From Desulfurococcaceae archaeon (GTDB lineage Archaea; Thermoproteota; Thermoprotei_A; Sulfolobales; NBVN01): 64,000 nt of DNA. This document shows, one piece after another, positions 31,475-58,006 of the stretch. Below the pieces are notes generated by a model. That model saw nothing but the letters and a program-made list of their open reading frames with translations, ran no database searches and was not told where the DNA came from. Position numbers and translations under genes: made by a program. The number at the start of each line of letters is the position of its first letter. Positions within the stretch are counted from its first letter, which is position 1. The stretch lies in contig JAJHQJ010000002.1 in the NCBI GenBank assembly GCA_020833415.1, forward strand, positions 3,840-67,839, written 5' to 3'.

Positions 31475-31719
31475 GCTGACCCCTTCCCCGCTCTGAAGGG
31501 CAGGGGTTGCCCGCATCTATTCGGGTCTACATCTGCGGGGCAGTTGGGGTGATCAGAGGTTCCTCCATTACATTTTCGTTACGTAGTTGCCTATTCTGCA
31601 TCCCCGTGGAGGGCTTAGGGGTAACCACATCCACGTAACCCCATCATCAAAACCATAGAATAGAGAAAGATTATAAGCCTTCCCCCATATTCCCGCCTTA
31701 AAAGGCTAGGCTTTCAGTT
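31475..31719 (-). repeat. Long form (about 245 bp) of the hairpin-repeat family, copy 2
   Basis: Bounded by GCTGACCCCTTCCCCGCTCTGAAGGGCAGGGG at one end and CCGCCTTAAAAGGCTAGGCTTTCAGTT|GCAA at the other. Internal blocks are shared with 44200-44446. Overlaps the moaE stop. Confidence 0.8.
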
Positions 31720-38207: not shown

Positions 38208-39461
38208 GTGAGCTACCCTGTGAGGGGTGAAGAGCCCGTTGTTATAGAGGCTCTTAAGGTGAGGGCTCTCCCCGAGGGTAGCTGTGACCGTCTACTTGAG
38301 TTCCTGATTCTCTATCGCGATGCCGTCCAGATGGTAGTCGACAGGGTCTGGAGTCTAGACACTAAGCTATCCAAGAAGAAGTTACATAGGCTGTTCTACA
38401 GCGACCTAATGTCTATGGGTTTTAGAGCTCACCACGCTAAGGAGGTATATATGTACGCTAAGAGCCTGGTGGAGTCGGCTAGGGGTAACGGCGGTAGAAA
38501 GCCTGTCCTCAGGAGGTTGAGTGCTAGGGTGGATAGGTACGACTACAGACTGGATTTAGACAGCATGACACTAACACTGAAGCTCCACAGCGGCTATGAG
38601 GCTAGGCTAAAGCTAGTGACATCGAGGGAGAGGGTCGAGAGGTTCAGGGGTTGGAGCAACTACGAGCTAGTTGTGAAGTACGATAAGGGAGAGTTTTGGG
38701 TCTCAATCTACTTTAGGAGAGCTGTTAAACCGTTGAAGCCCAGAACGGTAATGGCAATAGACCTGAACTTCGACAACGTAACGTTAGCAATATTCGCCCT
38801 TAGCGGTAGACTACTCAAATTGAAGAGGTTTAAGACTCCCCACAGGAGGATCCTGACCCACAGGATATGGATTGAGAGGATCCAGGAGAGGTACCCGAGG
38901 TCGTGGAGGTTCATCAAGGGCGTTAGGAGGGCTATCGAGAGGCATGGTAAAAGGATTAGGAGTATCTCGTGGGACTACGCCCATAAATTGGGGGACTTAG
39001 TGGCTGAGCTAGCACTCAAGTACTGTTCATTAATTGTCCTCGAGGATCTGGAGAAGCTGAAAGAGAACGGTAAAGGAGATAGGGAGTTTAACAAGAGGCT
39101 GGGGCTGTGGTTCTACCGTAGGATACAGTTCTGCGTTGAGTACGAGGCTAAAGAGAGGAATCTTGAAGTAGTTAAGATTAATCCTAGGGGTACTTCTTCG
39201 AAGTGCCCTGGGTGCGGTGGTAAGCTAGTTGAGGACGGGCATAGGGTGCTGAGGTGTAGAAAATGCGGCTTCACGGGTGATAGAGACGTTATAGCAACGG
39301 TAAACCTATACAGGAGATACGTGTTCAAGTACTCAAGATGTGGGGTCCCCGGGGTGGCCCCGAACGCCCCCGAGCCCGATGAGGCCCCGAGCGGGGTGCG
39401 GGGGAACGGATATGAGGTGATGAAAACTACATCAAGCTATATGAACCTATATGAGAGCTGA
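38208..39461 (+). CDS. tnpB: TnpB (IS605 OrfB / IS1341-type RNA-guided nuclease family), apparently intact, no adjacent tnpA
   Basis: 417 aa; RuvC-like residues in VMAIDLN, LIVLEDL, GDRDVIATVNL; zinc finger CPGCGG...CRKCG. Confidence 0.9.
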   Translation: MSYPVRGEEPVVIEALKVRALPEGSCDRLLEFLILYRDAVQMVVDRVWSLDTKLSKKKLHRLFYSDLMSMGFRAHHAKEVYMYAKSLVESARGNGGRKPVLRRLSARVDRYDYRLDLDSMTLTLKLHSGYEARLKLVTSRERVERFRGWSNYELVVKYDKGEFWVSIYFRRAVKPLKPRTVMAIDLNFDNVTLAIFALSGRLLKLKRFKTPHRRILTHRIWIERIQERYPRSWRFIKGVRRAIERHGKRIRSISWDYAHKLGDLVAELALKYCSLIVLEDLEKLKENGKGDREFNKRLGLWFYRRIQFCVEYEAKERNLEVVKINPRGTSSKCPGCGGKLVEDGHRVLRCRKCGFTGDRDVIATVNLYRRYVFKYSRCGVPGVAPNAPEPDEAPSGVRGNGYEVMKTTSSYMNLYES

Positions 39462-44583: not shown

Positions 44584-45087
44584 CTAGGTGCTGAGTTCCA
44601 GCTGAAGCTTATTACCACACCTAGGACACTCCCCCGGTTTCGCAGACCTGTAGCCGCAGGCTTTACATACATAGACGTACCTCCTGACCCTAGTCCTGCC
44701 AGGGTACTTAAGCCCCTGTATGGCTATACCTAGTGATATAGCTACGTTCTGTACTAAGGTATCGTCTGTGTAGAGTATGGCAGAACCGCACCTCTCCTTA
44801 ACGTAGTAGGCTAGAGCGAGGACCTCTAAATCGGCCTTAGAGAGCTCGTAGAGTACACCCAACTTCCTAGCTACCTCCATAACCCTCCTTCTGAAGTTTT
44901 CTGAAGCCTGTGTAACTACGAGTTTCCCTGAAGCTAGGGCCAACTCAACACCCCTCCTACTCCTCTCGTCGAGTACCTCCTCAGTAACCTGCTCAACGGT
45001 ATAGACCACCGGGTAGCTTAGGTTTACACCCGCGAAGAGTCCGGCCGCATCAACAACTACGTTACTCCTGCTACAGTCTACAGACAC
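44584..45087 (-). CDS. nob1: Nob1-like endonuclease (PIN domain plus zinc ribbon)
   Basis: 167 aa; PIN-like N-terminus; CKACGYRSAKPGECPRCG. Confidence 0.75.
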   Translation of the reverse strand: MSVDCSRSNVVVDAAGLFAGVNLSYPVVYTVEQVTEEVLDERSRRGVELALASGKLVVTQASENFRRRVMEVARKLGVLYELSKADLEVLALAYYVKERCGSAILYTDDTLVQNVAISLGIAIQGLKYPGRTRVRRYVYVCKACGYRSAKPGECPRCGNKLQLELST

Positions 45088-45908
45088 CTCTCGAACACCT
45101 TAGAGAAGAAGTCCTCGTAGAAGAACCTTATTACTCTAGCTGGTCTAGGTGCCTTAAGTACCTCTACCGAGTCCCCGGGCTCCCTGAGGGCCGTCATCAC
45201 CCCATCAACGTAGAGCTCTACCTCATGCGAGTCCCCGGATACCTCCACAAGGACCGTGGAATTCTCCGGGAGGACTACAGGTCTCGAGCAGAGGGATATG
45301 GGTGCAAGCGGAGTTACCAGTATAACCCTCATTAGGGGGTCCACTATGGGGCCTCCAGCAGCTAGGCTATACGCAGCCGAACCTACAGGTGTTGCAATTA
45401 TAACTCCATCACCTACAATACTGAGAACCCCCTCCACACGTCCTTCCTGGCATCTCATAACTCTGAGTCTACAGACCTTACCCCTGGCTCTCGAGGAGGT
45501 AACTACAGCTACTTCGTTAAGAGCGTACGGGATCCTCTCAACCCCCCTACACCTAGCCTCAAGCCTCATGTACTCATGGACTACGTACCTACCATCAATA
45601 AGTCTATCCAGAGCTATAGCGTAGTCATACGGGGGGACGTCGGCTAGGAACCCCCTCTTACCGTACCTAATGGTTACTACAGGGGTATCCATGTCTCCCA
45701 GGAGGTGTAGGGTCCTCAGTATAGTTCCATCACCACCTACTACAACTACTACGTCAACGCGGTCCCTACCGAGGTTGAAGGTTGGGTGCCACTCAACGTA
45801 GTTAAGGGCCCTTGAGTCTAGGTATGCTTTAAGACCCCTACTCTCGGCATACTCTAATATCTTTACAGCTAGGGCTAGGGCATCCGTGCTACCCAGCTTC
45901 GGTACCAC
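45078..45908 (-). CDS. nadK: NAD kinase
   Basis: 276 aa; VVVVGGDGTILRTL motif. Confidence 0.9.
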   Translation of the reverse strand: MVPKLGSTDALALAVKILEYAESRGLKAYLDSRALNYVEWHPTFNLGRDRVDVVVVVGGDGTILRTLHLLGDMDTPVVTIRYGKRGFLADVPPYDYAIALDRLIDGRYVVHEYMRLEARCRGVERIPYALNEVAVVTSSRARGKVCRLRVMRCQEGRVEGVLSIVGDGVIIATPVGSAAYSLAAGGPIVDPLMRVILVTPLAPISLCSRPVVLPENSTVLVEVSGDSHEVELYVDGVMTALREPGDSVEVLKAPRPARVIRFFYEDFFSKVFERCL

Positions 45909-45963
45909 CCCGATACTCTGCGTTCTCGCACCCCAGGTCTCCGTAGAGCTAGGGCTATTATAG

Positions 45964-46551
45964 CTAGGTCTTATAGCTACGGTCGTGCCCTACCTGTATA
46001 ATAGAGCTCTCGGGAACTGATATCCCCAGCTTTAGGAGCTTACTAACGCAGGTAGGGCAGAACTTATCCAGCTTCCTATCTACCTCCAGTAGGCTGTTAC
46101 TAAAGCTCATAACGCAGAGGGGGTTCCTACAGTGACCTAACCCAAAGACATGGCCTAGCTCGTGTACGGATTCCTTGACAACCCTCTTCAAGTACCCCTC
46201 CCTACTAGTCCAGAGCCTAAGCCTCCTGAGGAATACTGCGGCAGACCCTAGCTCAGGTATAGCCAGCCCGAACACGAAGTTGAGGCCGGGGACGTAGGCA
46301 TCGACATCGGCTAGTACGAGCACTATAGAGCTGTGACCCCTCCTTAGGGCCGATACATACCTAACGACGGCGTCTGCTAGGAACTGATTACGTACTCTAT
46401 CGAAGAACTCTTCAGGGATCTCCACAGCCCCCCCGAGGACTACTCCTGCGCTGAATACCTCAGAAAGCCTCCTCTGGAGGAGGTCTAGAGCATCGGTCTC
46501 GACGTACCCGTAGCTGTAGAGCTGGACCGTATAGACTCTAGCTAAGGCTAC
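45964..46551 (-). CDS. amzA: Archaemetzincin (zinc metallopeptidase), start uncertain
   Basis: HELGHVFGLGHC...C...C motif. The track ORF starts at GTG 46425, but 45 in-frame codons upstream (open to 46560) encode ARVYTVQLYSYGYVETDALDLLQRRLSEVFSAGVVLGGA, the conserved N-terminal strand-helix of the family, without any ATG/GTG/TTG. Confidence 0.85.
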   Translation of the reverse strand, partial: VALARVYTVQLYSYGYVETDALDLLQRRLSEVFSAGVVLGGAVEIPEEFFDRVRNQFLADAVVRYVSALRRGHSSIVLVLADVDAYVPGLNFVFGLAIPELGSAAVFLRRLRLWTSREGYLKRVVKESVHELGHVFGLGHCRNPLCVMSFSNSLLEVDRKLDKFCPTCVSKLLKLGISVPESSIIQVGHDRSYKT

Positions 46552-46638: not shown

Positions 46639-46923
46639 ATGGAGCTAGAGTATCTAGTCTCTACGGTGCTGACCATACTAATACCCTTCTACCTTACATC
46701 GTTCCTACTGTACATAATTAGGGTAGTTAAAGGACCAACCCTCTCCGATAGGGTACTTGCTGTAGACTCCCTAGGCTACGACCTAGCAGCCTTCATGGTA
46801 GTCCTCTCAGTACTTCTCAAAGCTCCGCTAATGATCGTATCCGCTCTAGCCCTAGCACTCTGGGTCTACGCTCTAGACATATACGTAGCCAAGTACCTAG
46901 AGGCCCGTGAGATGGGTGGTTAA
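46639..46923 (+). CDS. mnhF: Mrp antiporter subunit F-like
   Basis: 94 aa, membrane protein, ...VVKGPTLSDRVLAVDSLG.... Confidence 0.75.
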   Translation: MELEYLVSTVLTILIPFYLTSFLLYIIRVVKGPTLSDRVLAVDSLGYDLAAFMVVLSVLLKAPLMIVSALALALWVYALDIYVAKYLEAREMGG

Positions 46924-47296
46924 GGTGATCTCCCTCCTACTGGTAATCCTAGGACTTACCCTAATAGCAATCGGGGTCTTCTTCGACTTCGTCGGAGCTC
47001 TAGGTCTCCTAAGGTTACCCAACTTCTATACGAGACTACACGCAGCTACTGCAGGGGCTATAGGAGGTGCTGTAGTACCTATGCTAGGCGCTTCCCTGCT
47101 CGCACTAGGAGCCGAGTACCTAGGGCCACAGAGGTTCTTCCTAGCCGGGGCAGCGTTTGCGAGTAGCATCCTACTGATGATCCTAGCTCAAGCTGGGTCG
47201 CACGCCCTTGCGAGGGCGACCTACATATCCCAGGGAGCTCCTCTTGAGCCTATAGAGTACGACGCCTTAAGGGAGAGAGGTCGGGGTGGTTCCTAG
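46907..47296 (+). CDS. mnhG: Mrp antiporter subunit G-like
   Basis: 129 aa; LRLPNFYTRLHAATAGAIGG motif. Confidence 0.8.
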   Translation: MRWVVKVISLLLVILGLTLIAIGVFFDFVGALGLLRLPNFYTRLHAATAGAIGGAVVPMLGASLLALGAEYLGPQRFFLAGAAFASSILLMILAQAGSHALARATYISQGAPLEPIEYDALRERGRGGS

Positions 47297-47547
47297 TGGA
47301 GCCCGTAGCTATCCTACTAGCTACGGCGGCAGCCCTCCTCTCAGTTATAGCTACGTACCTAGCTATAGAGGCTAAGGACCTACTAGTAGCAACGGTATTC
47401 TCAGCTGTACAGAGTACGGCCTACGCACTAATGTACTACATACTCATGGCTCCGGACATAGTCCTAGTATACGTACCTGTATCGGTAGGTCTTCTCCCAG
47501 CCGTTACGATACTCTTAATAAAGAAGACTGAGAGGTATGAGAGATGA
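47296..47547 (+). CDS. MbhD / MrpB N-terminal (DUF4040)-like membrane subunit
   Basis: 83 aa, three TM helices, operon position. Confidence 0.6.
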   Translation: MEPVAILLATAAALLSVIATYLAIEAKDLLVATVFSAVQSTAYALMYYILMAPDIVLVYVPVSVGLLPAVTILLIKKTERYER

Positions 47548-48356
47548 AAGCCCGGGAGCTGTTGATAGCTATCTCAATAGCTCTAATGGTACTCCTCCTA
47601 GCGTACGTAATAGAGCTCGGAGGACTAGGTCCGCTAGCTCCGTACGCCCTGAGAGACATAGCTAGGGCCTACCTGGAGTACGTGTACAACCCATGGAACG
47701 TTACCGCAAGCTCCATGGCCTTAGAGGCAGTAACAGCAATAGTCTGGGACTATAGGGGTCTCGATACCTACTTCGAGACGTCAGTACTCTTCGTAGCAAT
47801 AGTAGGTGTGGCAACACTCTACAGGGGTTACCGTGAGTTAAGGGGGCTTGGTGGTGTAGGCCTCTCGGAGATTGTTAAGACCTCAACTAGGGTGCTAATA
47901 CCCTTAATACTGGTAGCCGGAGCTTCAATAGCTATCCACGGTCACCTAACCCCTGGAGGAGGCTTCCAGGGAGGGTCGTTCATGGCTGTCCTCATGGTAC
48001 TACTGGTGGTGGTATTCTCCCTAGATTACGCTTTCGAGAAGGGTCTAACTAGTAGTAGGTTACTAGCCATTAGATCAGCTGGTCTAGTGGGTATACTACT
48101 AACCTCAGTAGCTCTACTAATAGCCGGAGTCGTTGCCGGTGCAGGTGCCTACGTCTTCCAGAACATGGCTAGGGAGGGCTCGGACCTCTCAATGCCTTCG
48201 TGGTTCCTCGATAGACCCCTAGGAGGAACCCTCTTCCTCTTCAACGTCTTCGAGTCTTTGGCCGTAGTCTCTGGGTTAACACTTACGTTCATAGTTCTAG
48301 CCCTTAGGAAGGAGGAGGTAGACCAGGCCCTAGCTACTGGTGAGTGGTGTGAGTGA
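47544..48356 (+). CDS. mnhB: Mrp antiporter subunit B-like
   Basis: 270 aa; GHLTPGGGFQGG hallmark. Confidence 0.8.
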   Translation: MKARELLIAISIALMVLLLAYVIELGGLGPLAPYALRDIARAYLEYVYNPWNVTASSMALEAVTAIVWDYRGLDTYFETSVLFVAIVGVATLYRGYRELRGLGGVGLSEIVKTSTRVLIPLILVAGASIAIHGHLTPGGGFQGGSFMAVLMVLLVVVFSLDYAFEKGLTSSRLLAIRSAGLVGILLTSVALLIAGVVAGAGAYVFQNMAREGSDLSMPSWFLDRPLGGTLFLFNVFESLAVVSGLTLTFIVLALRKEEVDQALATGEWCE

Positions 48357-48753
48357 CTACTTCTCCCTAATGTTTACGGTTGTACTACTATCTCTAGTTG
48401 TCAACATAGGTATAGCCCTGTACGGAATATTCATCAAGCCGTCCCTAGTTAAGAAGTTCATAGCCCTGACAATATTCTCTGACAGCATAAACAGTTTCGC
48501 AATAGCTCTAGGCTTTAGGAGAGTAACCGGTTCCTACCCAGGTGTAGCTGTCCTATCAGACGTTCCGAGAGGTGTAGAGGAGCTTAGGCACTTCTCTACG
48601 GCATCTGTAGACCCCCTACCGCAGGCCCTAGTACTTACAGCCATAGTTATAGGCCTCGCCGTCTACATGTTCCTAACAGGCCTCATAATGCTGTACTACA
48701 GGCACTACGGGACTACACGTGTAGATGCTGCAAGAGGTGGTTCACGTGAGTAG
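48340..48753 (+). CDS. mnhC: Mrp antiporter subunit C (NuoK-like)
   Basis: 137 aa, membrane protein, operon position. Confidence 0.7.
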   Translation: MSGVSDYFSLMFTVVLLSLVVNIGIALYGIFIKPSLVKKFIALTIFSDSINSFAIALGFRRVTGSYPGVAVLSDVPRGVEELRHFSTASVDPLPQALVLTAIVIGLAVYMFLTGLIMLYYRHYGTTRVDAARGGSRE

Positions 48754-49252
48754 GCTACTCAACTACCTAACTGTCTTCGCACTAACATACTCTTTCTACG
48801 TAGTCTTTACCGGAGCATCAACATCCTTTAGTCTAGCTCTAGGGGCCCTGGCCTCAGCAGCTATAACTGTCTTTGCAACACCCCTACTCATCTCCAGAGA
48901 ACTTAGGCTAGCCGACGTAGTTAGGGCCGCCTACCTGGTAGCTTACTACATGTACTACATGGCCGTAGCCGAGGTAGAGGCCCACGTAGGTATAACTAGG
49001 ACTGTCCTGAGTAGGAGGATCCGGATCTCACCAGCTATAGTGGAGGTACCCTACTACGTGCGAACTAGCTTCGGGATGACCCTGATAGCCGGCTCCATAA
49101 CCAATACCCCGGGTACGGTCGTAGTACAGGTCGATACCGCGGGGAGGGTACTATACGTCCACTGGCTTAAGGCAGTAACCTACAGACCCGAGGAGGCTAG
49201 GAGGTACATCTCGGAGAAGTTTGAGGAGTTCGCAGCTAAGATCTTTGGGTGA
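48725..49252 (+). CDS. mnhE: Mrp antiporter subunit E-like
   Basis: 175 aa; ...GSITNTPGTVVVQVD.... Confidence 0.7.
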   Translation: MLQEVVHVSRLLNYLTVFALTYSFYVVFTGASTSFSLALGALASAAITVFATPLLISRELRLADVVRAAYLVAYYMYYMAVAEVEAHVGITRTVLSRRIRISPAIVEVPYYVRTSFGMTLIAGSITNTPGTVVVQVDTAGRVLYVHWLKAVTYRPEEARRYISEKFEEFAAKIFG

Positions 49253-50814
49253 GGGAGTTGCTTACCGCAGCCCTACTACCACTACTCCTAATCGGCCTAG
49301 CCTTCGCTCTCCCAGCTATCTCCCTAGTAGTAAGGAATCCGAGGTTCTTCAGGATCTACGCGGTTACGGCGTCGTTACTGGCCCTCGCGATGGCTTTAGA
49401 TGTAGCTGTAGGTGTCTACAGGACGGGGGTTACGTACTACCTGTTCGGAGGCTTCAGACCGCCTCTAGGCATAGTCTACACTATAGATAAGCTCGGCGCC
49501 GTACTAGGTCTGCTCTCGATCTTCATTCTCGCTATGTCCACTATCTACAGTACCTGGATGGTTAGGTCTAGGTGGGAGTACCTGTACTACACAGCCCTAC
49601 TAGCCTTAGGCGCGGGCTCCGTAGGCTGCCTCTACACAGGTGACGTATTCAACTTCTTCGTAATGCTAGAGGTACTCTCGATATCAGCCTACGTTCTCGT
49701 AGCCTTCTACCGCGATAATCCGAGAGCTGTTGAGGCATCTATAAGGTACTCCATGGTTGGTATGGTAGCTACATCGTTCTACCTACTCTCAGCTTTCGTG
49801 ATCTACGGTTCCTTCGGTACTCTAAACATGGCTGACGTAGCTCTTAAGGCTAGGTCCCCACTAGCTCAAATACAGTACAGCGGTGGGGTCTTCGGTAATG
49901 TAATCCTCTCCTCAGCTCTAGCTATAGCGTTATCCATGTGGACCTTCACCTTCAAGGCAGCTATATTCCCCAACCACTTCTGGCTCCCCGACGCAAACCC
50001 GGAGGCACCTACACCTATCTCAGCCCTATTCGTAGCTGTTATAGACCTCATAGGGGCCTATGGGGCGATCAGGTACCTCTACACGATCTTCGGTACTGGA
50101 AGTGTTATAGAGTATCTGAGGTCGGACATCATGCTCGTACTACACGTACTCGGAGCTCTCTCAGCACTAGTAGGTGCGCTACTCCTAGTAGTGCAGACCG
50201 ACGTTAAGAAGTTCATAGCATACAGTACGATAAGCCACATGGGTCTAGCCTTCATGGCCTTCACCTTAGGTACCGAGCGCGGTGTTGTAGCAGCCATAGT
50301 ACAGCTAGTATCGAACTCTCTTAGTGAGGCCTTACTATTCTACTCCGCGGGGATAGCTATAGTAGCCTCGGGAAGGGCTGTAGAGGGGCTCAGCACCCTT
50401 AGAAGGTATAGGCTTGCCTCAGTAGCCTTCGTAGTAGGGCTACTAAACCTCTTCGGGGTGGTCCCACTATTCATAGGGTTCTGGAGTAAGGTCCTGATAT
50501 TCATAGCTATGGTTGAGGTAGGCTACATCGCGAGTGCGCTGGTACTCGTAGTATCCACCGGGATCTCTGGGTTAGGGTATGTAAGGCTCATAAGGTACTT
50601 AACGAGGCCTAGCGGGAGTGTAAGGGAGGATGGGAGACTGAGGGATCTGAGAGTACCCTATGTAGTTATATCCGTAGTACTACTAGCTCTAGTCCTTCTA
50701 GGGGCGCTCTTCATATACCTACCGGAGTTTAGGGCCCTCCTAGAGGTAGTAGGTACTGAGGTCTTAGACTACGGCAAGTACGTCGAGGCTGTCCTAGGTG
50801 GAACATTTAAGTAG
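49249..50814 (+). CDS. mnhD: Mrp antiporter subunit D (NuoM/N-like proton-conducting subunit)
   Basis: 521 aa; ...FWLPDANPEAPTPISALF.... Confidence 0.9.
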   Translation: MRELLTAALLPLLLIGLAFALPAISLVVRNPRFFRIYAVTASLLALAMALDVAVGVYRTGVTYYLFGGFRPPLGIVYTIDKLGAVLGLLSIFILAMSTIYSTWMVRSRWEYLYYTALLALGAGSVGCLYTGDVFNFFVMLEVLSISAYVLVAFYRDNPRAVEASIRYSMVGMVATSFYLLSAFVIYGSFGTLNMADVALKARSPLAQIQYSGGVFGNVILSSALAIALSMWTFTFKAAIFPNHFWLPDANPEAPTPISALFVAVIDLIGAYGAIRYLYTIFGTGSVIEYLRSDIMLVLHVLGALSALVGALLLVVQTDVKKFIAYSTISHMGLAFMAFTLGTERGVVAAIVQLVSNSLSEALLFYSAGIAIVASGRAVEGLSTLRRYRLASVAFVVGLLNLFGVVPLFIGFWSKVLIFIAMVEVGYIASALVLVVSTGISGLGYVRLIRYLTRPSGSVREDGRLRDLRVPYVVISVVLLALVLLGALFIYLPEFRALLEVVGTEVLDYGKYVEAVLGGTFK

Positions 50815-50843
50815 TAAAAACGTATACAAACGCAACCTAGCGA

Positions 50844-50855
50844 GGTTTAAATACG
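50844..50855 (+). promoter_or_regulatory. TATA-like box (GGTTTAAATACG) between the Mrp module and the flavoprotein gene
   Basis: About 35 nt upstream of ATG 50884. Confidence 0.4.
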
Positions 50856-50883
50856 CTAAAGCAGGGTTTACAGCTGAGGAGGA

Positions 50884-51948
50884 ATGAAGTTCGCGTTCCT
50901 CTGTAAGGAGAGGACCAGGAGTTCTGGGGCTAAGGTAGCTGTAGTCGGTGCTGGTCCAGCTGGGCTAGCGGCTACAGGTTACCTAGTGTGCAGAGGGCAT
51001 GAGGTGGACGTCTACGATAAGCTACCCCTACCAGGTGGTATGATGACCTTCGCTATACCCAAGTATAGAATACCCCTGGATGCAGTTATGGAGGGGGTTG
51101 AGGACCTCCAGAAGAACTTCGGAGTCAAGTTTTACCTATCGACTAAGGTAGTGTGCGGTGAGAGGCACGACGAGGGTGATGAGCTGGCTAGAAATAATGT
51201 AGACCTTACGAAGCTTGTGGAGGGGTACAACGCCGTCCTCATAGCTACTGGGACGTGGCGCTCTAGGAGGTTAGGAGTACCTGGAGAGGATGCCGAGAAC
51301 GTCGTGTCCGCACTCGAGTTCCTACTCAAGCTAAACCTAGGTAGGTTAGGTCTTCTAGAGGGTAAGCTGTGGAGCTTTAGGAGAGTCGTTGTCGTAGGCG
51401 GGGGACTAAGCGCCATAGACGCTGCTGAGGAGAGTCTACTGAGCGGAGCTCAGGAGGTCTACCTAGTCTACAGGAGGACCATTAAGGAGGCCCCAGCCGG
51501 TGAGTACGAGATCGACAGACTCATTAGATTAGGGGTTAGGTGGATCGAGTTAGCAGCCCCTAAGTCTATAGTAGTGGAGAACGGTAGGGCGAGGGCTGTG
51601 GAGTTCCAGAGGATGAAGCTGGGCGAGCCTGACGAGACCGGTAGACCGAGGCCTGTCCCGATACCTGGTAGTGAGTTCACCCTAGAGGCAGACCTAGTTA
51701 TAGCTGCCATAGGTGAGATACCGACACCACCCCTAGCACCTAACTGTGGGGACCTAGTTAAGTACGTAGGGAAGGACGGTAGGGTCCTAGTTGATAGAGG
51801 TTACAGAATACCGGGGACAAACATCTTCGCAGCAGGTGACGTAGTTACCGGACCCTCTAAGATAGGTCAGGCAACTAAACAGGGACTGGAGGCAGCTAGG
51901 GAGATAGACAGGCTTTTGTCAGCTAAGATACTGGTCACTGCGAGGTGA
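50884..51948 (+). CDS. GltD/SudA-like NAD(P)H-dependent flavoprotein (two Rossmann folds, no N-terminal Fe-S domain)
   Basis: 354 aa; KVAVVGAGPAGLAA...IPKYRIP...VVVVGGGLSAIDAAEE...FAAGDVVTGPS. Confidence 0.8.
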   Translation: MKFAFLCKERTRSSGAKVAVVGAGPAGLAATGYLVCRGHEVDVYDKLPLPGGMMTFAIPKYRIPLDAVMEGVEDLQKNFGVKFYLSTKVVCGERHDEGDELARNNVDLTKLVEGYNAVLIATGTWRSRRLGVPGEDAENVVSALEFLLKLNLGRLGLLEGKLWSFRRVVVVGGGLSAIDAAEESLLSGAQEVYLVYRRTIKEAPAGEYEIDRLIRLGVRWIELAAPKSIVVENGRARAVEFQRMKLGEPDETGRPRPVPIPGSEFTLEADLVIAAIGEIPTPPLAPNCGDLVKYVGKDGRVLVDRGYRIPGTNIFAAGDVVTGPSKIGQATKQGLEAAREIDRLLSAKILVTAR

Positions 51949-52445
51949 ACCACGTGAGTGGGGTAGGTAGAGTAGGAGTCCTACTAAGAGCTATAGACTA
52001 CTCAAAGTGCATGGGTTGTGAAACCTGCGAGGTAGTCTGCGGGTTTATACACGAACTGGGACCCTTCATAAGACTCTACGAGATTGGAGGCGGGGTTAGG
52101 AGACCCATATCCTGCTTCCACTGCAGTAGAGCACCATGCGTAGAGGTCTGTCCCACCGGCGCTATGAGACGTGATAGCCAGGGTGCTGTCTACGTAGAGT
52201 TCTCTAGGTGTATAGGGTGTATGGCGTGCCTCTATGCCTGCCCCTTCGGGATCCCCGACTACAGTCCCACTACTAAGACCTCCGTTAAGTGCGATCTGTG
52301 TAGTGACCTAAGGAGAGAGGGGCTTACGGCAGCGTGCGTAGCTATGTGCCCGACGAGAGCTATCATTATAGGTGAGCCGAGGGCCATAGGGGATGAGATG
52401 AAGAGGAGAGCCCTTCTAAGGGTAGTCCACCTAGGTGATACCTAG
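51945..52445 (+). CDS. HycB-like polyferredoxin (four [4Fe-4S] motifs)
   Basis: 166 aa; CMGCETCEVVC, CFHCSRAPCVEVCP, CIGCMACLYACP, CDLC...CVAMCP. Confidence 0.85.
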   Translation: MNHVSGVGRVGVLLRAIDYSKCMGCETCEVVCGFIHELGPFIRLYEIGGGVRRPISCFHCSRAPCVEVCPTGAMRRDSQGAVYVEFSRCIGCMACLYACPFGIPDYSPTTKTSVKCDLCSDLRREGLTAACVAMCPTRAIIIGEPRAIGDEMKRRALLRVVHLGDT

Positions 52446-53953
52446 TGGAGGACCTACTTAGGTATGTCGTGTTTACAGTATCAACGGTACTCATACTAGC
52501 AGGTAATACCAGCCCCATTCGGGCTAAGGCTCTTGGAGCCTCTGTTAGGGTTGCCGGATTTTTGATGCTCCTACTACTCCTACCCTACTGGTACCTGGAC
52601 CCCACCCCCTCGGTCCTACTAACAGTATCGGTAGTTGTAGGCTCCCTCGTAACCCTCTACACCCCGGGTTACTCTAGTAGGAAGTACGGTACAGGACTTC
52701 TCCAGGTACTGGTAGATTTCTTCACACTCTCCGTAGTGCTGGTCTTTGCTTCCAGGTACCTCCTAGAGTTCATTGCCTTCTGGCTCGTAACTGAGGTACT
52801 GGGGTTCTTCGTTGTAGTCTACGATGCTATGCTAGGCATAAATCCCAGGGCCTGGTCAGCTGGGCTCAGGTACTTAGTGGTGTCGATGGTCCCGGCAGAC
52901 CTCTCCCTCCTACTCCTACTAGCCCTAGTAGGGTTGGAGGACTCCCTAAGCGTACCGCTTACGGAGCTAAGGCCTGACCTAACCACACCAATCCTAACAG
53001 TCTTAGCTATGGTGGGCTTCTTCGCTAAGGCGGCTGTAGCCCCCCTCCACTTCTGGCTCCCCGACGCACACTCCATGGCTCCGTCACCGGGTTCCGCCAT
53101 ACTCTCGGGGATAATGGTGAAGATGGGGATCTACGGTATTACTAGACTAGCACTAATGCCGTCTATCGATAGGGGGATCGCGGCTCTGGTATGCCTAGTC
53201 TTCGGCTCACTTACCTCCATATACGGTGGGCTCCAGGCTATAGTTCAGTCCGATATAAAGCGTATCCTAGCCTATAGCACTATATCACACACTAGTACTA
53301 TGACGTTACTACTAGGGCTTTACATACTATCCGGGAGTAGTCAGTTCCTAGCAGCTACCCTGATCTACGCCGCTGCACACGCCATATACAAGGCGTCCCT
53401 ATTCATGGACTCCGGAGTGGTTGAGGTACTAACCCATACAAGGTCTATAGAGAGGCTAGGCTACGTATCCAGATTCGCCCCCGGTGAGACTCTATCGGCC
53501 GTAATATCGGTACTCTCCCTAATCGGGGTTCCGCCAACCCTCGGCTTCCTAACTAAGCTCGCAGTCTTCATGTCACTAGCTGGTCACATACCGCAGTCGT
53601 GGGTCTACCTAGTTGCTACGGTAATAGTAGCCTTCGAGGTAATACTATCGGTAGGCTATAGTGTTAGGTATCTGCTAGCACACGTAGGTAACCCCTCCTA
53701 TAGGTACGAGGAGATCGACCCAGGAGCTCTAAAGCTAACACCCTACGTACTAACCCTCTCAGTTACGTCTGTAGTGCTCCCCTACTACGTACTAACCGCT
53801 ATCGGAGTTGTACCGGCACTCGGATTACCGTTACAGGTAGTATATCTACTCCTAGTACTTACAGCTCTCTTCGGGATTGCCAGCTGGGTGACCTACTCAA
53901 TGCTAAAACGTGGTAGGAGGGATGAGGTCTGGCTCGGGGGTGCTAGACCTTGA
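52445..53953 (+). CDS. HyfB/NuoL-like membrane subunit of group 4 hydrogenase
   Basis: 502 aa; ...FWLPDAHSMAPSPGSAILSGIMVKMG.... Confidence 0.85.
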   Translation: MEDLLRYVVFTVSTVLILAGNTSPIRAKALGASVRVAGFLMLLLLLPYWYLDPTPSVLLTVSVVVGSLVTLYTPGYSSRKYGTGLLQVLVDFFTLSVVLVFASRYLLEFIAFWLVTEVLGFFVVVYDAMLGINPRAWSAGLRYLVVSMVPADLSLLLLLALVGLEDSLSVPLTELRPDLTTPILTVLAMVGFFAKAAVAPLHFWLPDAHSMAPSPGSAILSGIMVKMGIYGITRLALMPSIDRGIAALVCLVFGSLTSIYGGLQAIVQSDIKRILAYSTISHTSTMTLLLGLYILSGSSQFLAATLIYAAAHAIYKASLFMDSGVVEVLTHTRSIERLGYVSRFAPGETLSAVISVLSLIGVPPTLGFLTKLAVFMSLAGHIPQSWVYLVATVIVAFEVILSVGYSVRYLLAHVGNPSYRYEEIDPGALKLTPYVLTLSVTSVVLPYYVLTAIGVVPALGLPLQVVYLLLVLTALFGIASWVTYSMLKRGRRDEVWLGGARP

Positions 53954-54306
53954 GCCATGTGAGGTCCAGCATCCTACGTAGGGTCGAGGAGTACGTTAGG
54001 AAGCTCATGCTCGTGGACAGTTCAGTGGTATTCGATAGGGTCGCTGAGTTAAGTGGACCTACTTCAGAGTCTAGGGAGTCGGAGTTCAGCAAGTTCCTTA
54101 CAAAGGCCCTTCGCTTCGTAGTGAACGTCCCCCAATACTTCTCGGTAGTAGAGTTCGACCTGAGGAAAACAGCGTCCAGGGTTACGAAGGCCCTCGAGAC
54201 CTTTAGGGACTCCTTAGAGACATCGGTAGCCCTCTCATCTCTTCTAGCAGGTACGTTAATAACTGTAGCCCTCCTAGTAATGGTGGTGGTTAGAGGTGCT
54301 CCATAG
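53950..54306 (+). CDS. Hypothetical C-terminally membrane-anchored protein within the hydrogenase operon
   Basis: 118 aa. Start and stop overlap the flanking genes. Preferred over the antisense ORF 53943..54350 by operon context. Confidence 0.5.
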   Translation: MSHVRSSILRRVEEYVRKLMLVDSSVVFDRVAELSGPTSESRESEFSKFLTKALRFVVNVPQYFSVVEFDLRKTASRVTKALETFRDSLETSVALSSLLAGTLITVALLVMVVVRGAP

Positions 54307-55159
54307 CATACTAACCCTAGTAGCTTCTTTAGTAGGGGTTGTACTAGCACCGGTCTACGACGGTCTTGAGCGTAAGCTGAGGGCAGCTATACATACACGC
54401 ATAGGCCCCCCAGTACTTCAGACGTGGTACGACCTAGTGAAGCTGTTCTCCAAGGAACTCGTAATTCCTGAGGGCGGTACGTGGTGCGTCCTCACGCTAG
54501 CCCTAGAGATTACAGCTTTAGTAGCCTCTATAGCCCTACTTAACTACATCCCCTTAGTAACTATCCCGGGGGTAGTGGGAGTTGAGGTGGCAGCCTTCAT
54601 AGCTCTCCTAACAGTAGCTACAGCTCTCACCATGGTGAGAGCCGTAGCCCAGAATAACGTCTACTCAGTTGTAGGTGGATTTAGGGAGTTCACCCTAGCT
54701 CTCTCATCTGAGCCCTTCTTAGTCTTCTCTTACCTAGCCCTAGTAGCTGGTGGGGAGAGACCTGTCTTCAGGATCTCCTCCCTACTCATCCTAACTATCT
54801 GTGCGTACGTACTAAGCAGTAGGATACCCTACGATATCGCTGAGGCCGAACCGGAGCTCTCCGCTGGGGTTAACATAGAGTTAGCCGGACCTCTATTGGG
54901 GGTAGCTACCATGTCCACCGTCCTCAGGAGGTTTCTAGCGGCTGAGCTTACAGCACTAGCACTAGTATCTACGGCAGGGTTCTGGAGCTACCAAGCCCTA
55001 GTCCTATCCCTAGCCCTAACCCCAGCAGTCTGGGTAGTACACGCACTGGTAAGCATACTCCTCGGTAGGACTAGGGTTGATGTAGGTCCTAGAACTCTAC
55101 TCCTAACTCTATTTCCTCTAAGTGTAGTTACGATAACTATCTACGGGTTAGGGCTATGA
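54296..55159 (+). CDS. HycD/NuoH-like membrane subunit
   Basis: 287 aa; ...GLERKLRAAIHTRIGPP.... Confidence 0.85.
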   Translation: MLHSILTLVASLVGVVLAPVYDGLERKLRAAIHTRIGPPVLQTWYDLVKLFSKELVIPEGGTWCVLTLALEITALVASIALLNYIPLVTIPGVVGVEVAAFIALLTVATALTMVRAVAQNNVYSVVGGFREFTLALSSEPFLVFSYLALVAGGERPVFRISSLLILTICAYVLSSRIPYDIAEAEPELSAGVNIELAGPLLGVATMSTVLRRFLAAELTALALVSTAGFWSYQALVLSLALTPAVWVVHALVSILLGRTRVDVGPRTLLLTLFPLSVVTITIYGLGL

Positions 55160-56787
55160 CGGAGTCTGTAAGTAAGCTTATCGAGGAGCTGAAGAGATTG
55201 GGAGGTAGGGTAGAGGAGGTTAAGGATAGGGAGGTCTACCTAGTAGTAGGTAGGGACAACCTAAGAAGCCTAGCCAAGGCACTCTACAGCACCGGAGCCT
55301 ACCTAAAGACCTGTGCAGGTGTGGACGAGAGGCAGGTCCAGGGAGTTCTCTCCATCTACTACATCTTCGGTTTAGACGAGCTAGGGGTTGACGTAGTCCT
55401 CAGGGTACCGGTAACTGAGGACGATGCTAAAATCCCAACTATAGTATTGGAGGTACCGGCCGCGGACTGGTGCGAGCTTGAGGCTAGGGACATGGTTGGA
55501 GTAGAGATAACCGGTAGACCCGTTAGGAGGCTAGTCCTACCGGAGGACTGGCCCGAGGGTATACACCCGCTTAGGAAGGACTTCGACTACTCTGCTAGAC
55601 CTCCGAGGCGTTTTAGGTCGGAGCTACCTGAGGAGGTTGGGGTACCCCTAGGTCCTTACCACCCAGCACTCCACGAACCTGAGTACTTCGAACTCTACGT
55701 AGATGGTGAGAAGGTTGTTGACGTAGTCTACAGGGGCTTCCACGTCCATAGAGGTATAGAGAAGCTGGCTGAGTCACCTAGGTTTACCTACAAGCAGATC
55801 CCGTTCCTAGCTGAGAGGATCTGCGGTATCTGCGGTTTCGTACACTCCAGCTGCTACGTTATGGCTGTCGAGAGAGCGGCCGGGATAGAGGTACCGGAGA
55901 GGGCTGAGTTCATAAGGTCGATAGTCCTTGAGGTTGAGAGACTCCATAGCCACCTACTATGGCTTGGCGTAGCAGCCCACCTACTAGGCTACGATGTAGG
56001 CTTCATGCACGCCTGGAGAATTAGAGAGCACGTCATGGTCCTAGCGGAGTACCTAACAGGGTCTAGGAAGACCTACGGGATAAACATCATAGGGGGTGTT
56101 AGGAGGGACCTAAACGTAGATAAGCTGGATAGAATCCTTAAGACCCTGGCGAAGGTACGTGAGGAGTTTGTGAAGCTAGTCGAGGTCATGCTATCAGTTC
56201 CCCAGATCAAGTTAAGGGCTTCCGGTACGGGGATCCTATCGAGGTCCGAGGCGAGGGCTCTAAGTGTTGTAGGCCCTGTTGCGAGGGCCTCCGGGCTGTA
56301 CAGGGATATTAGGAAGGACTACCCGTACTTCGCCTATAGGGAGGTGTCCTTTAAGGTTCCCCTATACACTGAGGGGGATAACCTAGCTAGGGTCCTAGTC
56401 AGAGTTGAGGAGGTACTGGAGAGCATAGAGATAATCAAGCAACTAGTAGACAAACTACCCGGAGGACCCGTAGCTGTGGAGTCGTGGGACGTACCGCCCT
56501 ATAGGAGGGCTGTAGCAGCTATCGAGGCACCTAGAGGAGAGGATGTGCACTTCATAATAACTGGGGTCGGGAAGCCCTATAGGTGGAGGGTTAGAGCACC
56601 GACATACCAGAACATACCTGCTTTGAGGGCTATGCTGAGGGGGGCTTCACTAGCAGATGCCCCACTAACAATAGCGAGTATAGACCCTTGCTTCTCTTGT
56701 ACAGATAGACTGGTCGTCTATGACTTGAGGACCGGTAGTAGGAGGGTCCTAAGAATCGCGGGAGGTGTATCTGCGTGTCCCTTGTGA
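55156..56787 (+). CDS. Group 4 [NiFe]-hydrogenase large subunit (NuoC-NuoD fusion, HycE-like)
   Basis: 543 aa. The N-terminal ligand motif RICGICGFVHSSCY and the C-terminal DPCFSCTDR are both present, followed by a 25-aa tail. Confidence 0.9.
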   Translation: MTESVSKLIEELKRLGGRVEEVKDREVYLVVGRDNLRSLAKALYSTGAYLKTCAGVDERQVQGVLSIYYIFGLDELGVDVVLRVPVTEDDAKIPTIVLEVPAADWCELEARDMVGVEITGRPVRRLVLPEDWPEGIHPLRKDFDYSARPPRRFRSELPEEVGVPLGPYHPALHEPEYFELYVDGEKVVDVVYRGFHVHRGIEKLAESPRFTYKQIPFLAERICGICGFVHSSCYVMAVERAAGIEVPERAEFIRSIVLEVERLHSHLLWLGVAAHLLGYDVGFMHAWRIREHVMVLAEYLTGSRKTYGINIIGGVRRDLNVDKLDRILKTLAKVREEFVKLVEVMLSVPQIKLRASGTGILSRSEARALSVVGPVARASGLYRDIRKDYPYFAYREVSFKVPLYTEGDNLARVLVRVEEVLESIEIIKQLVDKLPGGPVAVESWDVPPYRRAVAAIEAPRGEDVHFIITGVGKPYRWRVRAPTYQNIPALRAMLRGASLADAPLTIASIDPCFSCTDRLVVYDLRTGSRRVLRIAGGVSACPL

Positions 56788-57287
56788 AGATACTCGAAAT
56801 AGCCCTTAGAACCGGGCGTGTAACCCGTAGGTATCCGGTGGAGGAGCCTCTACTGACACCGGAGTTTAGGGGCTCTATAGAGGTGGACCCATCGAAGTGC
56901 TGGGGTTGTGGTGCCTGTACTAAGGTATGCCCCTCTAACGCTCTAACTCTAACACCCTCGGGTAAGGGCCTCGTTCTGGAGTACTTCGTTGGTAGGTGTG
57001 TATTCTGCGGTATGTGTGCTGAGGTATGCCCAGCTAAGGCTATAACGGTTACGAAGAAGTTCGAACTCGCCTCCAAGAACCTCAGGGACTTGAGGTCTAG
57101 GGTGGTCCACGAAGTACTACGCTGTAGTGTTTGTGGAGCACCTATCACAGCAGAGGCTGAGGTAAGGGCTGTAGTGAAGGTATCGCCCATAACTGAGGAG
57201 TACGTTGCCCTATGCCCTAGGTGTAGGAAGGAGAGGTTCACTAAGTCAGTAGCCCTTAGGATAGGTGCTAGCAGTGGACCTAGCTAA
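56775..57287 (+). CDS. HycF/NuoI-like 2x[4Fe-4S] subunit
   Basis: 170 aa; CWGCGACTKVCP and CVFCGMCAEVCP. Confidence 0.85.
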   Translation: MSLVKILEIALRTGRVTRRYPVEEPLLTPEFRGSIEVDPSKCWGCGACTKVCPSNALTLTPSGKGLVLEYFVGRCVFCGMCAEVCPAKAITVTKKFELASKNLRDLRSRVVHEVLRCSVCGAPITAEAEVRAVVKVSPITEEYVALCPRCRKERFTKSVALRIGASSGPS

Positions 57288-57765
57288 GGCTCTTAAAGCT
57301 ATTAGGAGGAGTATCTGGGTATACCACCTAAACAGCGGTTCATGCAACGCGTGTGATATAGAGGTTCTCGACGCACTAACACCCTACTTCGACGTCGAGA
57401 GGTTCGGGATAAAGCTAGTAGGGTCCCCTAGGCACGCTGACGTAGTTCTGTTTACGGGTCCGGTAACTAGGGAGTCCCTTCCTAAGGTCGTGAGGGCCCT
57501 CAAGGCTATGCCAAGGCCTAGACTACTCCTAGTCCTAGGGTCGTGCGGTGTTGGAGGGGGTATATGGTGGGATACCTATGCAACTATCGGGGGCTTCAGT
57601 AAGCTCGAGGAGATCCTCAGGGAGCAGGGTGTGGAGGTGGATAGAGTAGTCTACGTACCGGGTTGCCCGGTAAGGCCTGAGGCTATAATCTACGGTATAC
57701 TGGTTCTACTAGGTCTAGCTGAGCAGAAGGTTAGGGAGGTGGAGGTACACGCACCAGGAGGTTAA
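57265..57765 (+). CDS. HycG/NuoB-like hydrogenase small subunit
   Basis: 166 aa; GSCNACDIE...LGSCGVGGG...VPGCPVRPE. Confidence 0.85.
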   Translation: MLAVDLAKALKAIRRSIWVYHLNSGSCNACDIEVLDALTPYFDVERFGIKLVGSPRHADVVLFTGPVTRESLPKVVRALKAMPRPRLLLVLGSCGVGGGIWWDTYATIGGFSKLEEILREQGVEVDRVVYVPGCPVRPEAIIYGILVLLGLAEQKVREVEVHAPGG

Positions 57766-57796
57766 GGTCTACCTCTGCTCGGTAGAGGGTCTAGAG

Positions 57797-58006
57797 GTGT
57801 CCACCTACAGGCACGTACTAGCACCAATCTCGAGGTGTGAGTATAGGGGTAGTATTAGCATAGACTCACTACCCCCCGAGGTACGTGAGGAACTCCTAAA
57901 GAGGGGTGAGGTAATTCTAACCGAGCTCGATGAGAACCTAGCCAAGGTGCTGGGAGTCGATAACCTCAGTAACTATCAGTACATTAGGTTCTCCACCTAC
58001 GGTTAG
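57797..58006 (+). CDS. Hypothetical small protein
   Basis: 69-aa ORF after the hydrogenase genes; no family recognised. Confidence 0.4.
   Translation: MSTYRHVLAPISRCEYRGSISIDSLPPEVREELLKRGEVILTELDENLAKVLGVDNLSNYQYIRFSTYG

Follow-up and report, generated by a model that had tools for sequence, protein, structure and literature searches.

All characterised group-4 [NiFe] hydrogenases draw, to our knowledge, their electrons from ferredoxin, formate or CO. In the Desulfurococcales, Anderson et al. (2009) described in Staphylothermus marinus a SudA-like protein, Smar_1055, which is 120 residues shorter than Pyrococcus furiosus SudA and is encoded beside Smar_1057-1071 (PMC2678158). Spring et al. 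(2010) then reported that a sudA homologue replaces fdhA in operons of Thermosphaera aggregans, Desulfurococcus kamchatkensis and S. marinus, and suggested that an NADPH dehydrogenase is coupled there to the reduction of protons or sulfur, with antiporter genes only in S. marinus (PMC3035292). The term used for these clusters, "dehydrogenase-linked MBX complex", is also that of the Ignisphaera aggregans genome paper (PMC3035270), and among the group-4 subclasses of HydDB none is coupled to NAD(P)H (PMC5037454). Here we analyse a cluster in which Mrp/Mnh antiporter genes are followed by a GltD/NfnL/SudA-type flavoprotein gene and by genes for a hydrogenase of the formate hydrogenlyase (FHL) type, located in a 64-kb stretch (hereafter the window) of contig JAJHQJ010000002.1 from an uncultured Desulfurococcaceae archaeon. 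The architecture as such is not new, having been described for the Desulfurococcales in 2009-2010 (PMC3035292, PMC2678158). With a probability that we put at about 0.55, the cluster would encode an NAD(P)H-linked, ion-coupled FHL-type hydrogenase, organised as one membrane complex of three modules.

The cluster is an unbroken series of plus-strand open reading frames (ORFs) at 46639-58006, composed of a seven-gene Mrp/Mnh block, a gap and a nine-ORF hydrogenase block (ORF listing and Pfam; Table 1). All 16 ORFs were assessed by domain search, and those of 118 and 69 aa were left without a family. Every ORF listed in a first reading of the bare sequence (the original prediction) was present on the plus strand at its coordinates, and the families assigned there agreed with Pfam and NCBIfam. 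As that reading had said of most of the stops and starts, the ORFs abut or overlap within each block, those for the flavoprotein, the HycB-like protein, the HyfB-like protein and the ones that follow being among the overlapping ones; the coordinates assume the first start codon available in each frame, which may overestimate some of the overlaps. Five independent assemblies (loci L001, L030, L002, L035 and L036) share the junction of the Mrp block with the hydrogenase block, and several hot-spring metagenome runs contain 93-99% of the words across 50000-53000; the junction is therefore no assembly artefact. The DNA runs that matched the region were hot-spring and sediment metagenomes only, and a search among sequencing runs found no RNA runs containing it. 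The window organism belongs to an uncultured hot-spring lineage, to which the closest matches found were at most 88-95% identical, the best locus among species representatives (L001) being 88% identical. The comparisons below cover the surroundings of flavoprotein homologues in 23 genome loci and of large-subunit homologues in 80 metagenome loci, together with 9 additional neighbourhoods retrieved via exact protein look-up, all scored by tblastn with the complete set of window proteins.

The large subunit carries the motifs RICGIC at residues 221-226 and DPCFSCTDR at residues 510-518, with all four ligand cysteines present and exactly 25 residues after R518, so that the two NiFe motifs and the 25-aa C-terminal tail noticed in the original prediction were borne out. 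Both motifs were conserved in 120/120 of the best large-subunit homologues listed, with tails of 18-30 residues. In the comparison with solved structures the protein scored 465 bits against Escherichia coli HycE (7z0s_E, E 3e-138), 248 bits against P. furiosus MbhL (6cfw_L) and 187 bits against MBS (6u8y_L). BLASTP identities were 54% with a Hyf-like subunit of Ca. Methanodesulfokora, 49% with Pyrococcus kukulkanii FHL and 47% with E. coli HycE, and 41% with Pyrococcus MbhL over the NuoD part only; the subgroup comparison consisted of identity to 4a, 4b and 4d references. Retention of the motifs and of the tail marks the large subunit as that of a true hydrogenase, and by its sequence the enzyme is an FHL-type group-4 [NiFe] hydrogenase and not an Mbx/MBS or complex-I-like derivative, in agreement with what had first been supposed. 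An Mbx/MBS identity of this subunit was ruled out both by the intact Cys ligands of the NiFe site and by the similarity to 6u8y_L being the weakest of the three.

The flavoprotein encoded at the head of the hydrogenase block matched the NCBIfam model NF009409 ("putative glutamate synthase subunit beta", 360 positions) over its full length with 467 bits (cut-off 343), so its short form is native and not the product of truncation. Two dinucleotide-binding motifs (GAGPAG at residue 22 and GGGLSA at residue 172) were seen and no Fe-S domain was detected, since Pfam gave no Fer4_20 match and the protein has only four scattered Cys, which is the GltD-like composition described earlier for it. These Cys form no CxxC-type pair and consequently no redox-active disulfide, unlike those of pyridine-nucleotide disulfide reductases. 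Residues 12-349 align to the FAD/NAD(P)H part of Protein Data Bank (PDB) references with E-values of 1e-53 to 4e-59. The matches included the NfnL-like domain of a 1178-aa molybdopterin oxidoreductase (9bov), NfnA from Thermococcus sibiricus (9n5u), StnC from Sporomusa ovata (8oh5), the large subunit of P. furiosus NfnI (5jca_L), Thermotoga maritima NfnB (4ylf_B) and GltD. The alignments begin at about residue 140-190 of the references, past the Fe-S domain of NfnL, NfnA, StnC and GltD, and a VYRRT sequence that follows the second dinucleotide fold is matched by LYRRT and VYRRS in these references. For NfnABC, the solved structure shows NADP(H) entering at the homologous FAD domain (PMC12018979). 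Homology to NfnL and the conserved YRR motif would make NADPH the likelier substrate of the flavoprotein.

The next gene encodes a HycB/FdhB-type polyferredoxin, in which the four [4Fe-4S] motifs expected from the first reading were recovered with their 16 Cys. Its PDB matches (HDCR HycB3, NrfC, E. coli HycB, the WOR5 Fe-S subunit and AorA) belong to the family of four-cluster connectors. Fusions of about 530 aa that join the flavoprotein and a Fer4_11 domain occur in Ignisphaera, Zestosphaera and Desulfurococcaceae, many flavoprotein homologues having that form, and E. coli AegA and YgfT join both domain types in the opposite order. Such fusions argue that the flavoprotein and the polyferredoxin of the window act together, the latter replacing the missing Fe-S domain, and they are good evidence for regarding the pair as a single predicted functional unit. 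In FHL-type clusters the formate dehydrogenase gene lies directly upstream of the HycB/FdhB-like gene (PMC2678158, PMC3035292). That slot is held in the window by the flavoprotein gene, which supports the earlier proposal that this protein replaces the substrate dehydrogenase. The FHL subunits HycB, C, D, E, F and G each have one counterpart here, and only the FdhF position is held by the flavoprotein.

To what extent the flavoprotein belongs to this hydrogenase can be read from the related loci. The large subunit was at least 53% identical to that of the window in 18 loci, two of which (L037 and L041) end just upstream of the hydrogenase genes, leaving 16 informative ones, and the flavoprotein-polyferredoxin pair was present in 16/16 of these, in three gene orders. 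In the first (type i: the window, L001, L030, L002, L035 and L036) the order is Mrp, flavoprotein, HycB, HyfB, small ORF and HycD-E-F-G; L034 is a partial example, with only MnhD visible upstream. The second (type ii: L004, L031, L038, L039, L040, L046 and L107) is like type i without Mrp and with two HyfB genes. In the third (type iii: L042 and L043) Mrp is followed by HyfB and HycD-E-F-G, and the pair lies downstream. Loci below about 52% large-subunit identity were FHL/Hyf types without the flavoprotein, with the exceptions of the Pyrococcus locus L024 and of L060 and L089. When the flavoprotein and the large subunit were each placed in a neighbour-joining tree, the same groups were recovered and the two trees were largely congruent, although they were built without bootstrap and are indicative only. 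Conservation of the flavoprotein independently of the hydrogenase, named in the original prediction as the observation that would speak against it, was thus not seen within this clade. At the level of the sequences compared, these data show the flavoprotein to be a fixed, co-diverging component of the whole hydrogenase clade.

The seven Mrp proteins share 37-50% identity with the Mnh proteins encoded after the Pyrococcus FHL genes and follow the same gene order, F-G-(MbhD)-B-C-E-D, so that the parallel with the Thermococcales Mnh module drawn in the original prediction stands in sequence as well as in order. The order had been given there as mnhF-G-(B N-terminal)-B-C-E-D; it was correct except for the label of the third gene, which is MbhD in Pfam (PF13244) rather than an N-terminal part of MnhB. 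NCBIfam models for Na+/H+ antiporter subunit D match MnhD below their cut-offs. Mrp genes adjoin hydrogenase genes in three different arrangements, and the persistence of this adjacency argues for a functional link between the two.

Between the two blocks a TATA-like box, TTTAAATA, had been noticed in a gap given as 70 nt; the box was found as described, and the gap measures 69 nt. The box lies 30 nt ahead of the flavoprotein ATG, and L001 and L030 have the same TATA-like box at the same spacing. In type-ii loci, which lack Mrp, the flavoprotein gene is the first of the operon. The conserved box and the leading position of the gene in those operons make it probable that the flavoprotein and hydrogenase genes have their own promoter, and the gap probably holds this putative internal promoter.

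Table 1. Features of the Mrp-flavoprotein-hydrogenase cluster, with positions counted from the first nucleotide of the window.
Feature	Position	Strand	Evidence
MrpF/MnhF-like antiporter subunit, 94 aa	46639..46923	+	PF04066 E 3.5e-12; 46% identical to Pyrococcus FHL-associated MnhF
MrpG/MnhG-like subunit, 129 aa	46907..47296	+	PF03334 E 8.9e-16; 49% identical to P. kukulkanii MnhG
MbhD-like small membrane subunit, 83 aa	47296..47547	+	PF13244 E 1.6e-11; 50% identical to Pyrococcus counterpart
MnhB-like subunit, 270 aa	47544..48356	+	PF04039 E 2e-19; weak MbhE N-terminal match
MnhC/NuoK-like subunit, 137 aa	48340..48753	+	PF00420 E 1.1e-17
MnhE-like subunit, 175 aa	48725..49252	+	PF01899 E 9e-32
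MnhD antiporter-like subunit, 521 aa	49249..50814	+	PF00361 E 5e-48; 37% identical to P. kukulkanii MnhD
Intergenic region, 69 nt, with archaeal TATA-like box TTTAAATA at 50846-50853	50815..50883	+	Sequence reading
Short GltD/NfnL/SudA-type FAD and NAD(P)H flavoprotein, 354 aa	50884..51948	+	PF07992 (Pyr_redox_2) E 7e-33; NF009409
HycB/FdhB-type polyferredoxin, 166 aa, 16 Cys, four [4Fe-4S] CxxCxxCxxxC-type motifs	51945..52445	+	PF13247 (Fer4_11) E 1.5e-19
HyfB/HycC-like antiporter-like membrane subunit, 502 aa	52445..53953	+	PF00361 (Proton_antipo_M) E 7e-45
Tail-anchored membrane protein, 118 aa	53950..54306	+	No Pfam/NCBIfam match; C-terminal hydrophobic segment (transmembrane helix) 91-118
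HycD/NuoH-like membrane subunit, 287 aa	54296..55159	+	PF00146 E 6e-35
[NiFe] large subunit, HycE-type fused NuoC-NuoD, 543 aa	55156..56787	+	PF00329 (Complex1_30kDa), PF00374 (NiFeSe_Hases) and PF00346 (Complex1_49kDa)
HycF/NuoI-like 2x[4Fe-4S] subunit, 170 aa, 12 Cys	56775..57287	+	Fer4 families
HycG/NuoB-like small subunit, 166 aa, 4 Cys	57265..57765	+	PF01058 E 1e-23; 48% identical to E. coli HycG
Soluble ORF after hycG, 69 aa	57797..58006	+	No Pfam family; 77% identical in L001, 48% in L030

Among the remaining subunits, the best NCBIfam match of the HyfB/HycC-like protein was hydrogenase 4 subunit B and that of the HycF-like protein was the formate hydrogenlyase iron-sulfur subunit (E 2e-36), both below the cut-offs of the models. 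The HycF-like protein has, beyond its two [4Fe-4S] motifs, an extra C-terminal CxxC...CxxC element (CSVC...CPRC) that could be an additional metal site. The 118-aa protein, listed as an unknown at first, remained without a Pfam or NCBIfam match; ORFs 78% (L001) and 62% (L030) identical to it occupy the same slot between the HyfB-like and HycD-like genes, where L031 has a 96-aa ORF with a C-terminal transmembrane helix and no detectable similarity to the 118-aa protein. The 69-aa ORF is weakly but significantly similar to small ORFs located directly behind hycG in L031 (18462-18755; 36%, E 1e-8) and in Methanodesulfokora (L026:8539-8775; 30%, E 5e-6). It probably belongs to the hydrogenase unit, and the predicted protein may serve these hydrogenases in an accessory or assembly role.

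The three modules of the proposed complex would work as follows. In the input module, NAD(P)H would deliver a hydride to the FAD of the flavoprotein, from which single electrons would pass into the four clusters of the HycB-like polyferredoxin, standing in for the Fe-S domain that the flavoprotein lacks. In the catalytic core, electrons would travel from HycB through the two clusters of HycF and the single cluster of HycG to the NiFe site of the HycE-like subunit, where protons would be reduced to H2 or H2 oxidised. This core would be anchored by HycD (NuoH-like) and by one HycC/HyfB antiporter-like subunit, the 118-aa tail-anchored protein being placed in the membrane arm. The membrane arm and the seven-gene Mrp/Mnh set would form the ion module, coupling the redox reaction to movement of H+ or Na+. 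The net reaction, NAD(P)H + H+ <-> NAD(P)+ + H2 with ion coupling, would run near equilibrium and is therefore probably reversible. Our guess, made at somewhat better than even odds, is that its physiological role in these fermentative hot-spring archaea is the disposal of NAD(P)H as H2.

A number of observations weigh against such a complex. With potentials of about -320 versus -414 mV, H2 production from NAD(P)H is uphill by ~18 kJ/mol under standard conditions, so that H2 evolution needs either ion influx or a very low H2 pressure. Ion influx would aid H2 evolution at higher H2 pressure, weak energy conservation would be possible at very low H2, and the reverse reaction, H2-driven reduction of NADP+, could conserve energy. 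Many relatives have no Mrp genes, none being found within 10 kb in type-ii loci, and in the window the conserved TATA box stands between the two gene blocks; the box and the relatives lacking Mrp together indicate that Mrp coupling is not a requirement of the clade. Genes for the maturation that such a hydrogenase would need, namely hyp and a hycI-type endopeptidase gene for removal of the 25-aa tail, were not found in the 64-kb window, either by Pfam among some 40 further ORFs or by tblastn with E. coli HycI, HycH, HypA and HypB. The polyferredoxin could also take electrons from ferredoxin. Our literature search, in which subscription journals were thinly covered, returned genome-based proposals only and no biochemical, transcript or structural study of any member. 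Finally, the flavoprotein-polyferredoxin pair is not exclusive to hydrogenases, as copies 57-68% identical to it adjoin AFOR-family tungstoenzymes in Korarchaeota, Ignisphaera and Methanodesulfokora, and in P. kukulkanii (CP010835, L024:9610-11568) the pair lies between the FHL-FocA-Mnh cluster and the mbh operon.

These additional copies are informative in their own right. Two Korarchaeum metagenome-assembled genomes (MAGs; L028:9256-12659 and L029:624-4027) have the pair together with AFOR, radical-SAM/SPASM and ThiS genes and no hydrogenase, and the same neighbours accompany a fused form of about 530 aa in Ignisphaera (L032:7489-11599). In Methanodesulfokora (L026:10001-13491) the pair stands between a Hyf-like hydrogenase and AFOR, and in P. 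kukulkanii, where the flavoprotein is 55% identical to that of the window, a gene for a 125-aa ferredoxin-like protein precedes it. In the neighbour-joining tree the AFOR-linked flavoproteins nest inside the type-i, hydrogenase-linked clade. The simplest reading of a pair that occurs fused, or beside different catalytic partners, is that of a portable NAD(P)H:polyferredoxin module which would confer NAD(P)H coupling on the enzyme to which it is attached. By analogy with the bacterial AorABC, the AFOR-linked copies predict an archaeal aldehyde oxidoreductase coupled to NAD(P)+. AorC of AorABC was considered as a homologue of the flavoprotein and rejected, because no 8c0z chain appeared among its PDB matches at E<=1e-3; the systems are analogous only, AorA matching the polyferredoxin in the PDB search, unlike AorC with the flavoprotein.

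Group-4-like clusters in other lineages also contain flavoproteins of this kind. A Dehalococcoidales MAG (L017:6095-12538) encodes HyfB, HycD, HycG, a flavoprotein ORF of about 730 aa, a NuoD-like subunit and HycF; a Limnocylindrales MAG (L006:3423-11665) has a GltD-like ORF near hydrogenase genes; and two unassigned metagenome contigs (L060 and L089) have the order flavoprotein-HycB-HycD-HycE-HycF-HycG with no antiporter-like subunit. These loci suggest that group-4-like clusters have repeatedly recruited putative NAD(P)H modules.

Because the pair is found apart from hydrogenases, one may ask whether its adjacency to them is regulatory or historical. The pair would then be a free-standing NAD(P)H:polyferredoxin oxidoreductase that serves mainly AFOR-type enzymes, and the hydrogenase an ordinary ferredoxin- or polyferredoxin-coupled group-4 enzyme. 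The hydrogenase-free loci of Korarchaeota and Ignisphaera, the nesting of AFOR-linked flavoproteins in the hydrogenase-linked clade and the pterin-cofactor genes for MoeA-PBP and MoaE in the window are in line with this explanation, which we nevertheless hold to be highly improbable, since within the clade the pair was never missing from an informative locus, whatever the gene order, and the flavoprotein and large-subunit trees agree. Moreover, the ORFs of the pair overlap the hydrogenase gene that follows them, as listed, the pair heads the operon where Mrp is absent, and FHL-type complexes require a HycB-type docking connector, as in E. coli FHL (7z0s).

The nature of the electron donor was weighed in the same way. 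HycB-type polyferredoxins are generic electron connectors, and these fermenters yield mostly reduced ferredoxin (PMC2678158, PMC3035292); ferredoxin could thus be the donor to the polyferredoxin, with electrons split between H+ and, by way of the flavoprotein, NADP+ in an Mbx-like Fd:NADP+ oxidoreductase/hydrogenase, or the flavoprotein could be a separate NAD(P)H-dependent polysulfide/sulfur reductase that the complex supplies with electrons. Anderson et al. made a proposal of this kind for the S. marinus cluster, with Smar_1055 as a sulfur reductase (PMC2678158). We regard it as unlikely for the window: the missing disulfide, with four scattered Cys and no CxxC-type pair, argues against a sulfur reductase, the intact NiFe ligands of the large subunit differ from what is found in Mbx/MBS, the flavoprotein stands in the exact slot of the substrate dehydrogenase beside HycB, and related genomes have separate Mbh- and Mbx-type complexes for ferredoxin (PMC3035292, PMC3035270). 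Somewhat more unlikely still is flavin-based confurcation, in which NADPH and a second donor such as reduced ferredoxin would jointly yield H2, or the reverse split (bifurcation). It would solve the thermodynamic problem of H2 formation from NADPH; among proteins of known structure, those nearest to the flavoprotein are subunits of bifurcating Nfn/Stn enzymes, and the NfnL-type FAD is the bifurcating flavin in NfnSL. However, neither a second flavoprotein, NfnS/SudB-like, nor any other second electron branch is encoded in the cluster, the N-terminal two-cluster domain that provides the low-potential branch of NfnL is absent, the homologous FAD domain of NfnABC is a plain NADPH entry point and not the bifurcation site (PMC12018979), and another source of driving force is already at hand in the Mrp-type ion module. 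All three explanations are therefore weakened by the data, and we retain an NAD(P)H-linked, ion-coupled hydrogenase as our reading of the cluster.

More tentatively, and at somewhat less than even odds, the clade could constitute a distinct group-4 subgroup, namely an ion-translocating NADP(H)-dependent respiratory hydrogenase with a portable NAD(P)H "plug" that is also used on tungsten aldehyde oxidoreductases. If so, the pyridine-nucleotide pool would be linked directly to H2 and to the Na+/H+ gradient, fermenters would have a new route to shed NAD(P)H reducing power, and the reverse reaction could yield NADPH and an ion gradient from H2. In functional terms, such an enzyme would closely parallel the transition from hydrogenase to a complex I that oxidises NADH. 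The comparative results obtained here (fixation and co-divergence across the clade, three gene orders, fusions, AFOR-linked copies and the conserved small ORF after hycG) sharpen this hypothesis.

Other genes of the window were also inspected. Directly upstream of mrpF, on the minus strand (44584-46425), lie genes for a PIN-domain protein, an NAD kinase and an M54 archaemetzincin. All three also border the cluster in L001 and L030, with the first two inverted in L030. A kinase that forms NADP+ is worth noting beside a putative NADPH-linked hydrogenase. A functional link through NADPH was nevertheless rejected, as the adjacency is common to the two closest relatives only and absent from more distant loci, and it is probably local synteny only. 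A 625-aa ORF (61907-63784, plus strand), examined as a candidate AFOR, is by Pfam a MoeA fused to a PBP-like domain of the molybdate/tungstate-binding type, and a MoaE gene lies at 31706-32233 on the minus strand; the predicted MoeA-PBP and MoaE, which belong to pterin-cofactor biosynthesis, would fit a genome that encodes tungsto- or molybdoenzymes, AFOR for example, outside the window. On the plus strand, three consecutive multi-CBS-domain ORFs (269, 308 and 290 aa; 32550-35151) are followed by a radical-SAM gene (35255-36331), and a 417-aa ORF (38208-39461) with a Cas12f1-like TNB domain (PF07282 E 3e-17) encodes a transposon-associated nuclease of the TnpB/IS200-IS605 OrfB type.

Compared with systems of known function, the cluster combines traits that are otherwise found apart. 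The Thermococcales Fdh-Mfh-Mnh complexes (group 4b; represented here by the FHL-FocA-Mnh cluster of P. kukulkanii, L024) likewise have a fused NuoC-NuoD large subunit, 49% identical to that of the window, and the P. kukulkanii cluster shares with it the HycD, HycF and HycG counterparts and an identical Mnh order. Unlike them, the cluster of the window encodes no formate dehydrogenase or formate transporter, there being no molybdopterin-oxidoreductase or Form_Nir_trans domain in 44-61 kb (Pfam), L024 having FocA, and the proposed NAD(P)H/H2 couple is thermodynamically much less favourable at high temperature than formate/H2. E. coli formate hydrogenlyase-1 (7z0s, group 4a) offers counterparts of HycB to HycG, a HycE 47% identical to the large subunit, the same NiFe motifs and a C-terminal extension; in contrast to it, the window lacks FdhF, has the added Mrp genes and shows no hycA, hycH, hycI or hyp nearby, and similarity to HycC and HycD is only 26-30%.

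As for the flavoprotein, NfnSL (NfnI/SudAB), GltD and NfnABC/Stn share its dinucleotide folds over the whole 354 aa together with the YRR motif. It differs from NfnSL and GltD in having no N-terminal domain with two [4Fe-4S] clusters and a four-cluster HycB-type partner instead, and no NfnS/SudB or GltB partner gene was found in the cluster (ORF list and Pfam). The Mbh (6cfw) and MBS/Mbx (6u8y) complexes of P. furiosus have, like the window, an Mrp-linked architecture resembling complex I. However, Mbh, in which NuoC and NuoD are individual subunits, takes electrons straight from ferredoxin and contains neither a HycB nor a flavoprotein, and in MBS the NiFe ligands have been lost.

The closest relatives remain the "dehydrogenase-linked MBX complexes" of Desulfurococcaceae (Tagg_0050-0059, D. 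kamchatkensis, Smar_1055-1071), which likewise have a sudA/gltD homologue in place of fdhA beside FdhB/HycB-like and Hyc/Hyf-type genes, and the S. marinus complex also includes Mrp genes, as the window does. The large-subunit homologues of Staphylothermus, Thermosphaera and Thermogladius are 59-62% identical to that of the window at full coverage. Gene order differs: Mrp lies upstream of the flavoprotein gene in the window, where there is a single HyfB, whereas loci of the T. aggregans type lack Mrp and contain two HyfB genes, and in S. marinus the Mrp genes come after the hydrogenase genes, judging by locus-tag numbering. Published work on these clusters uses the name "MBX" and leaves the acceptor open, whereas the intact NiFe motifs of the window argue for H+/H2 as the acceptor couple. 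The window thus adds to the described complexes one from an uncultured hot-spring organism, whose genes are arranged slightly differently, with Mrp upstream and a single HyfB, and as cultured carriers exist in Staphylothermus, Thermosphaera and Thermogladius, the hypothesis is directly testable in them.

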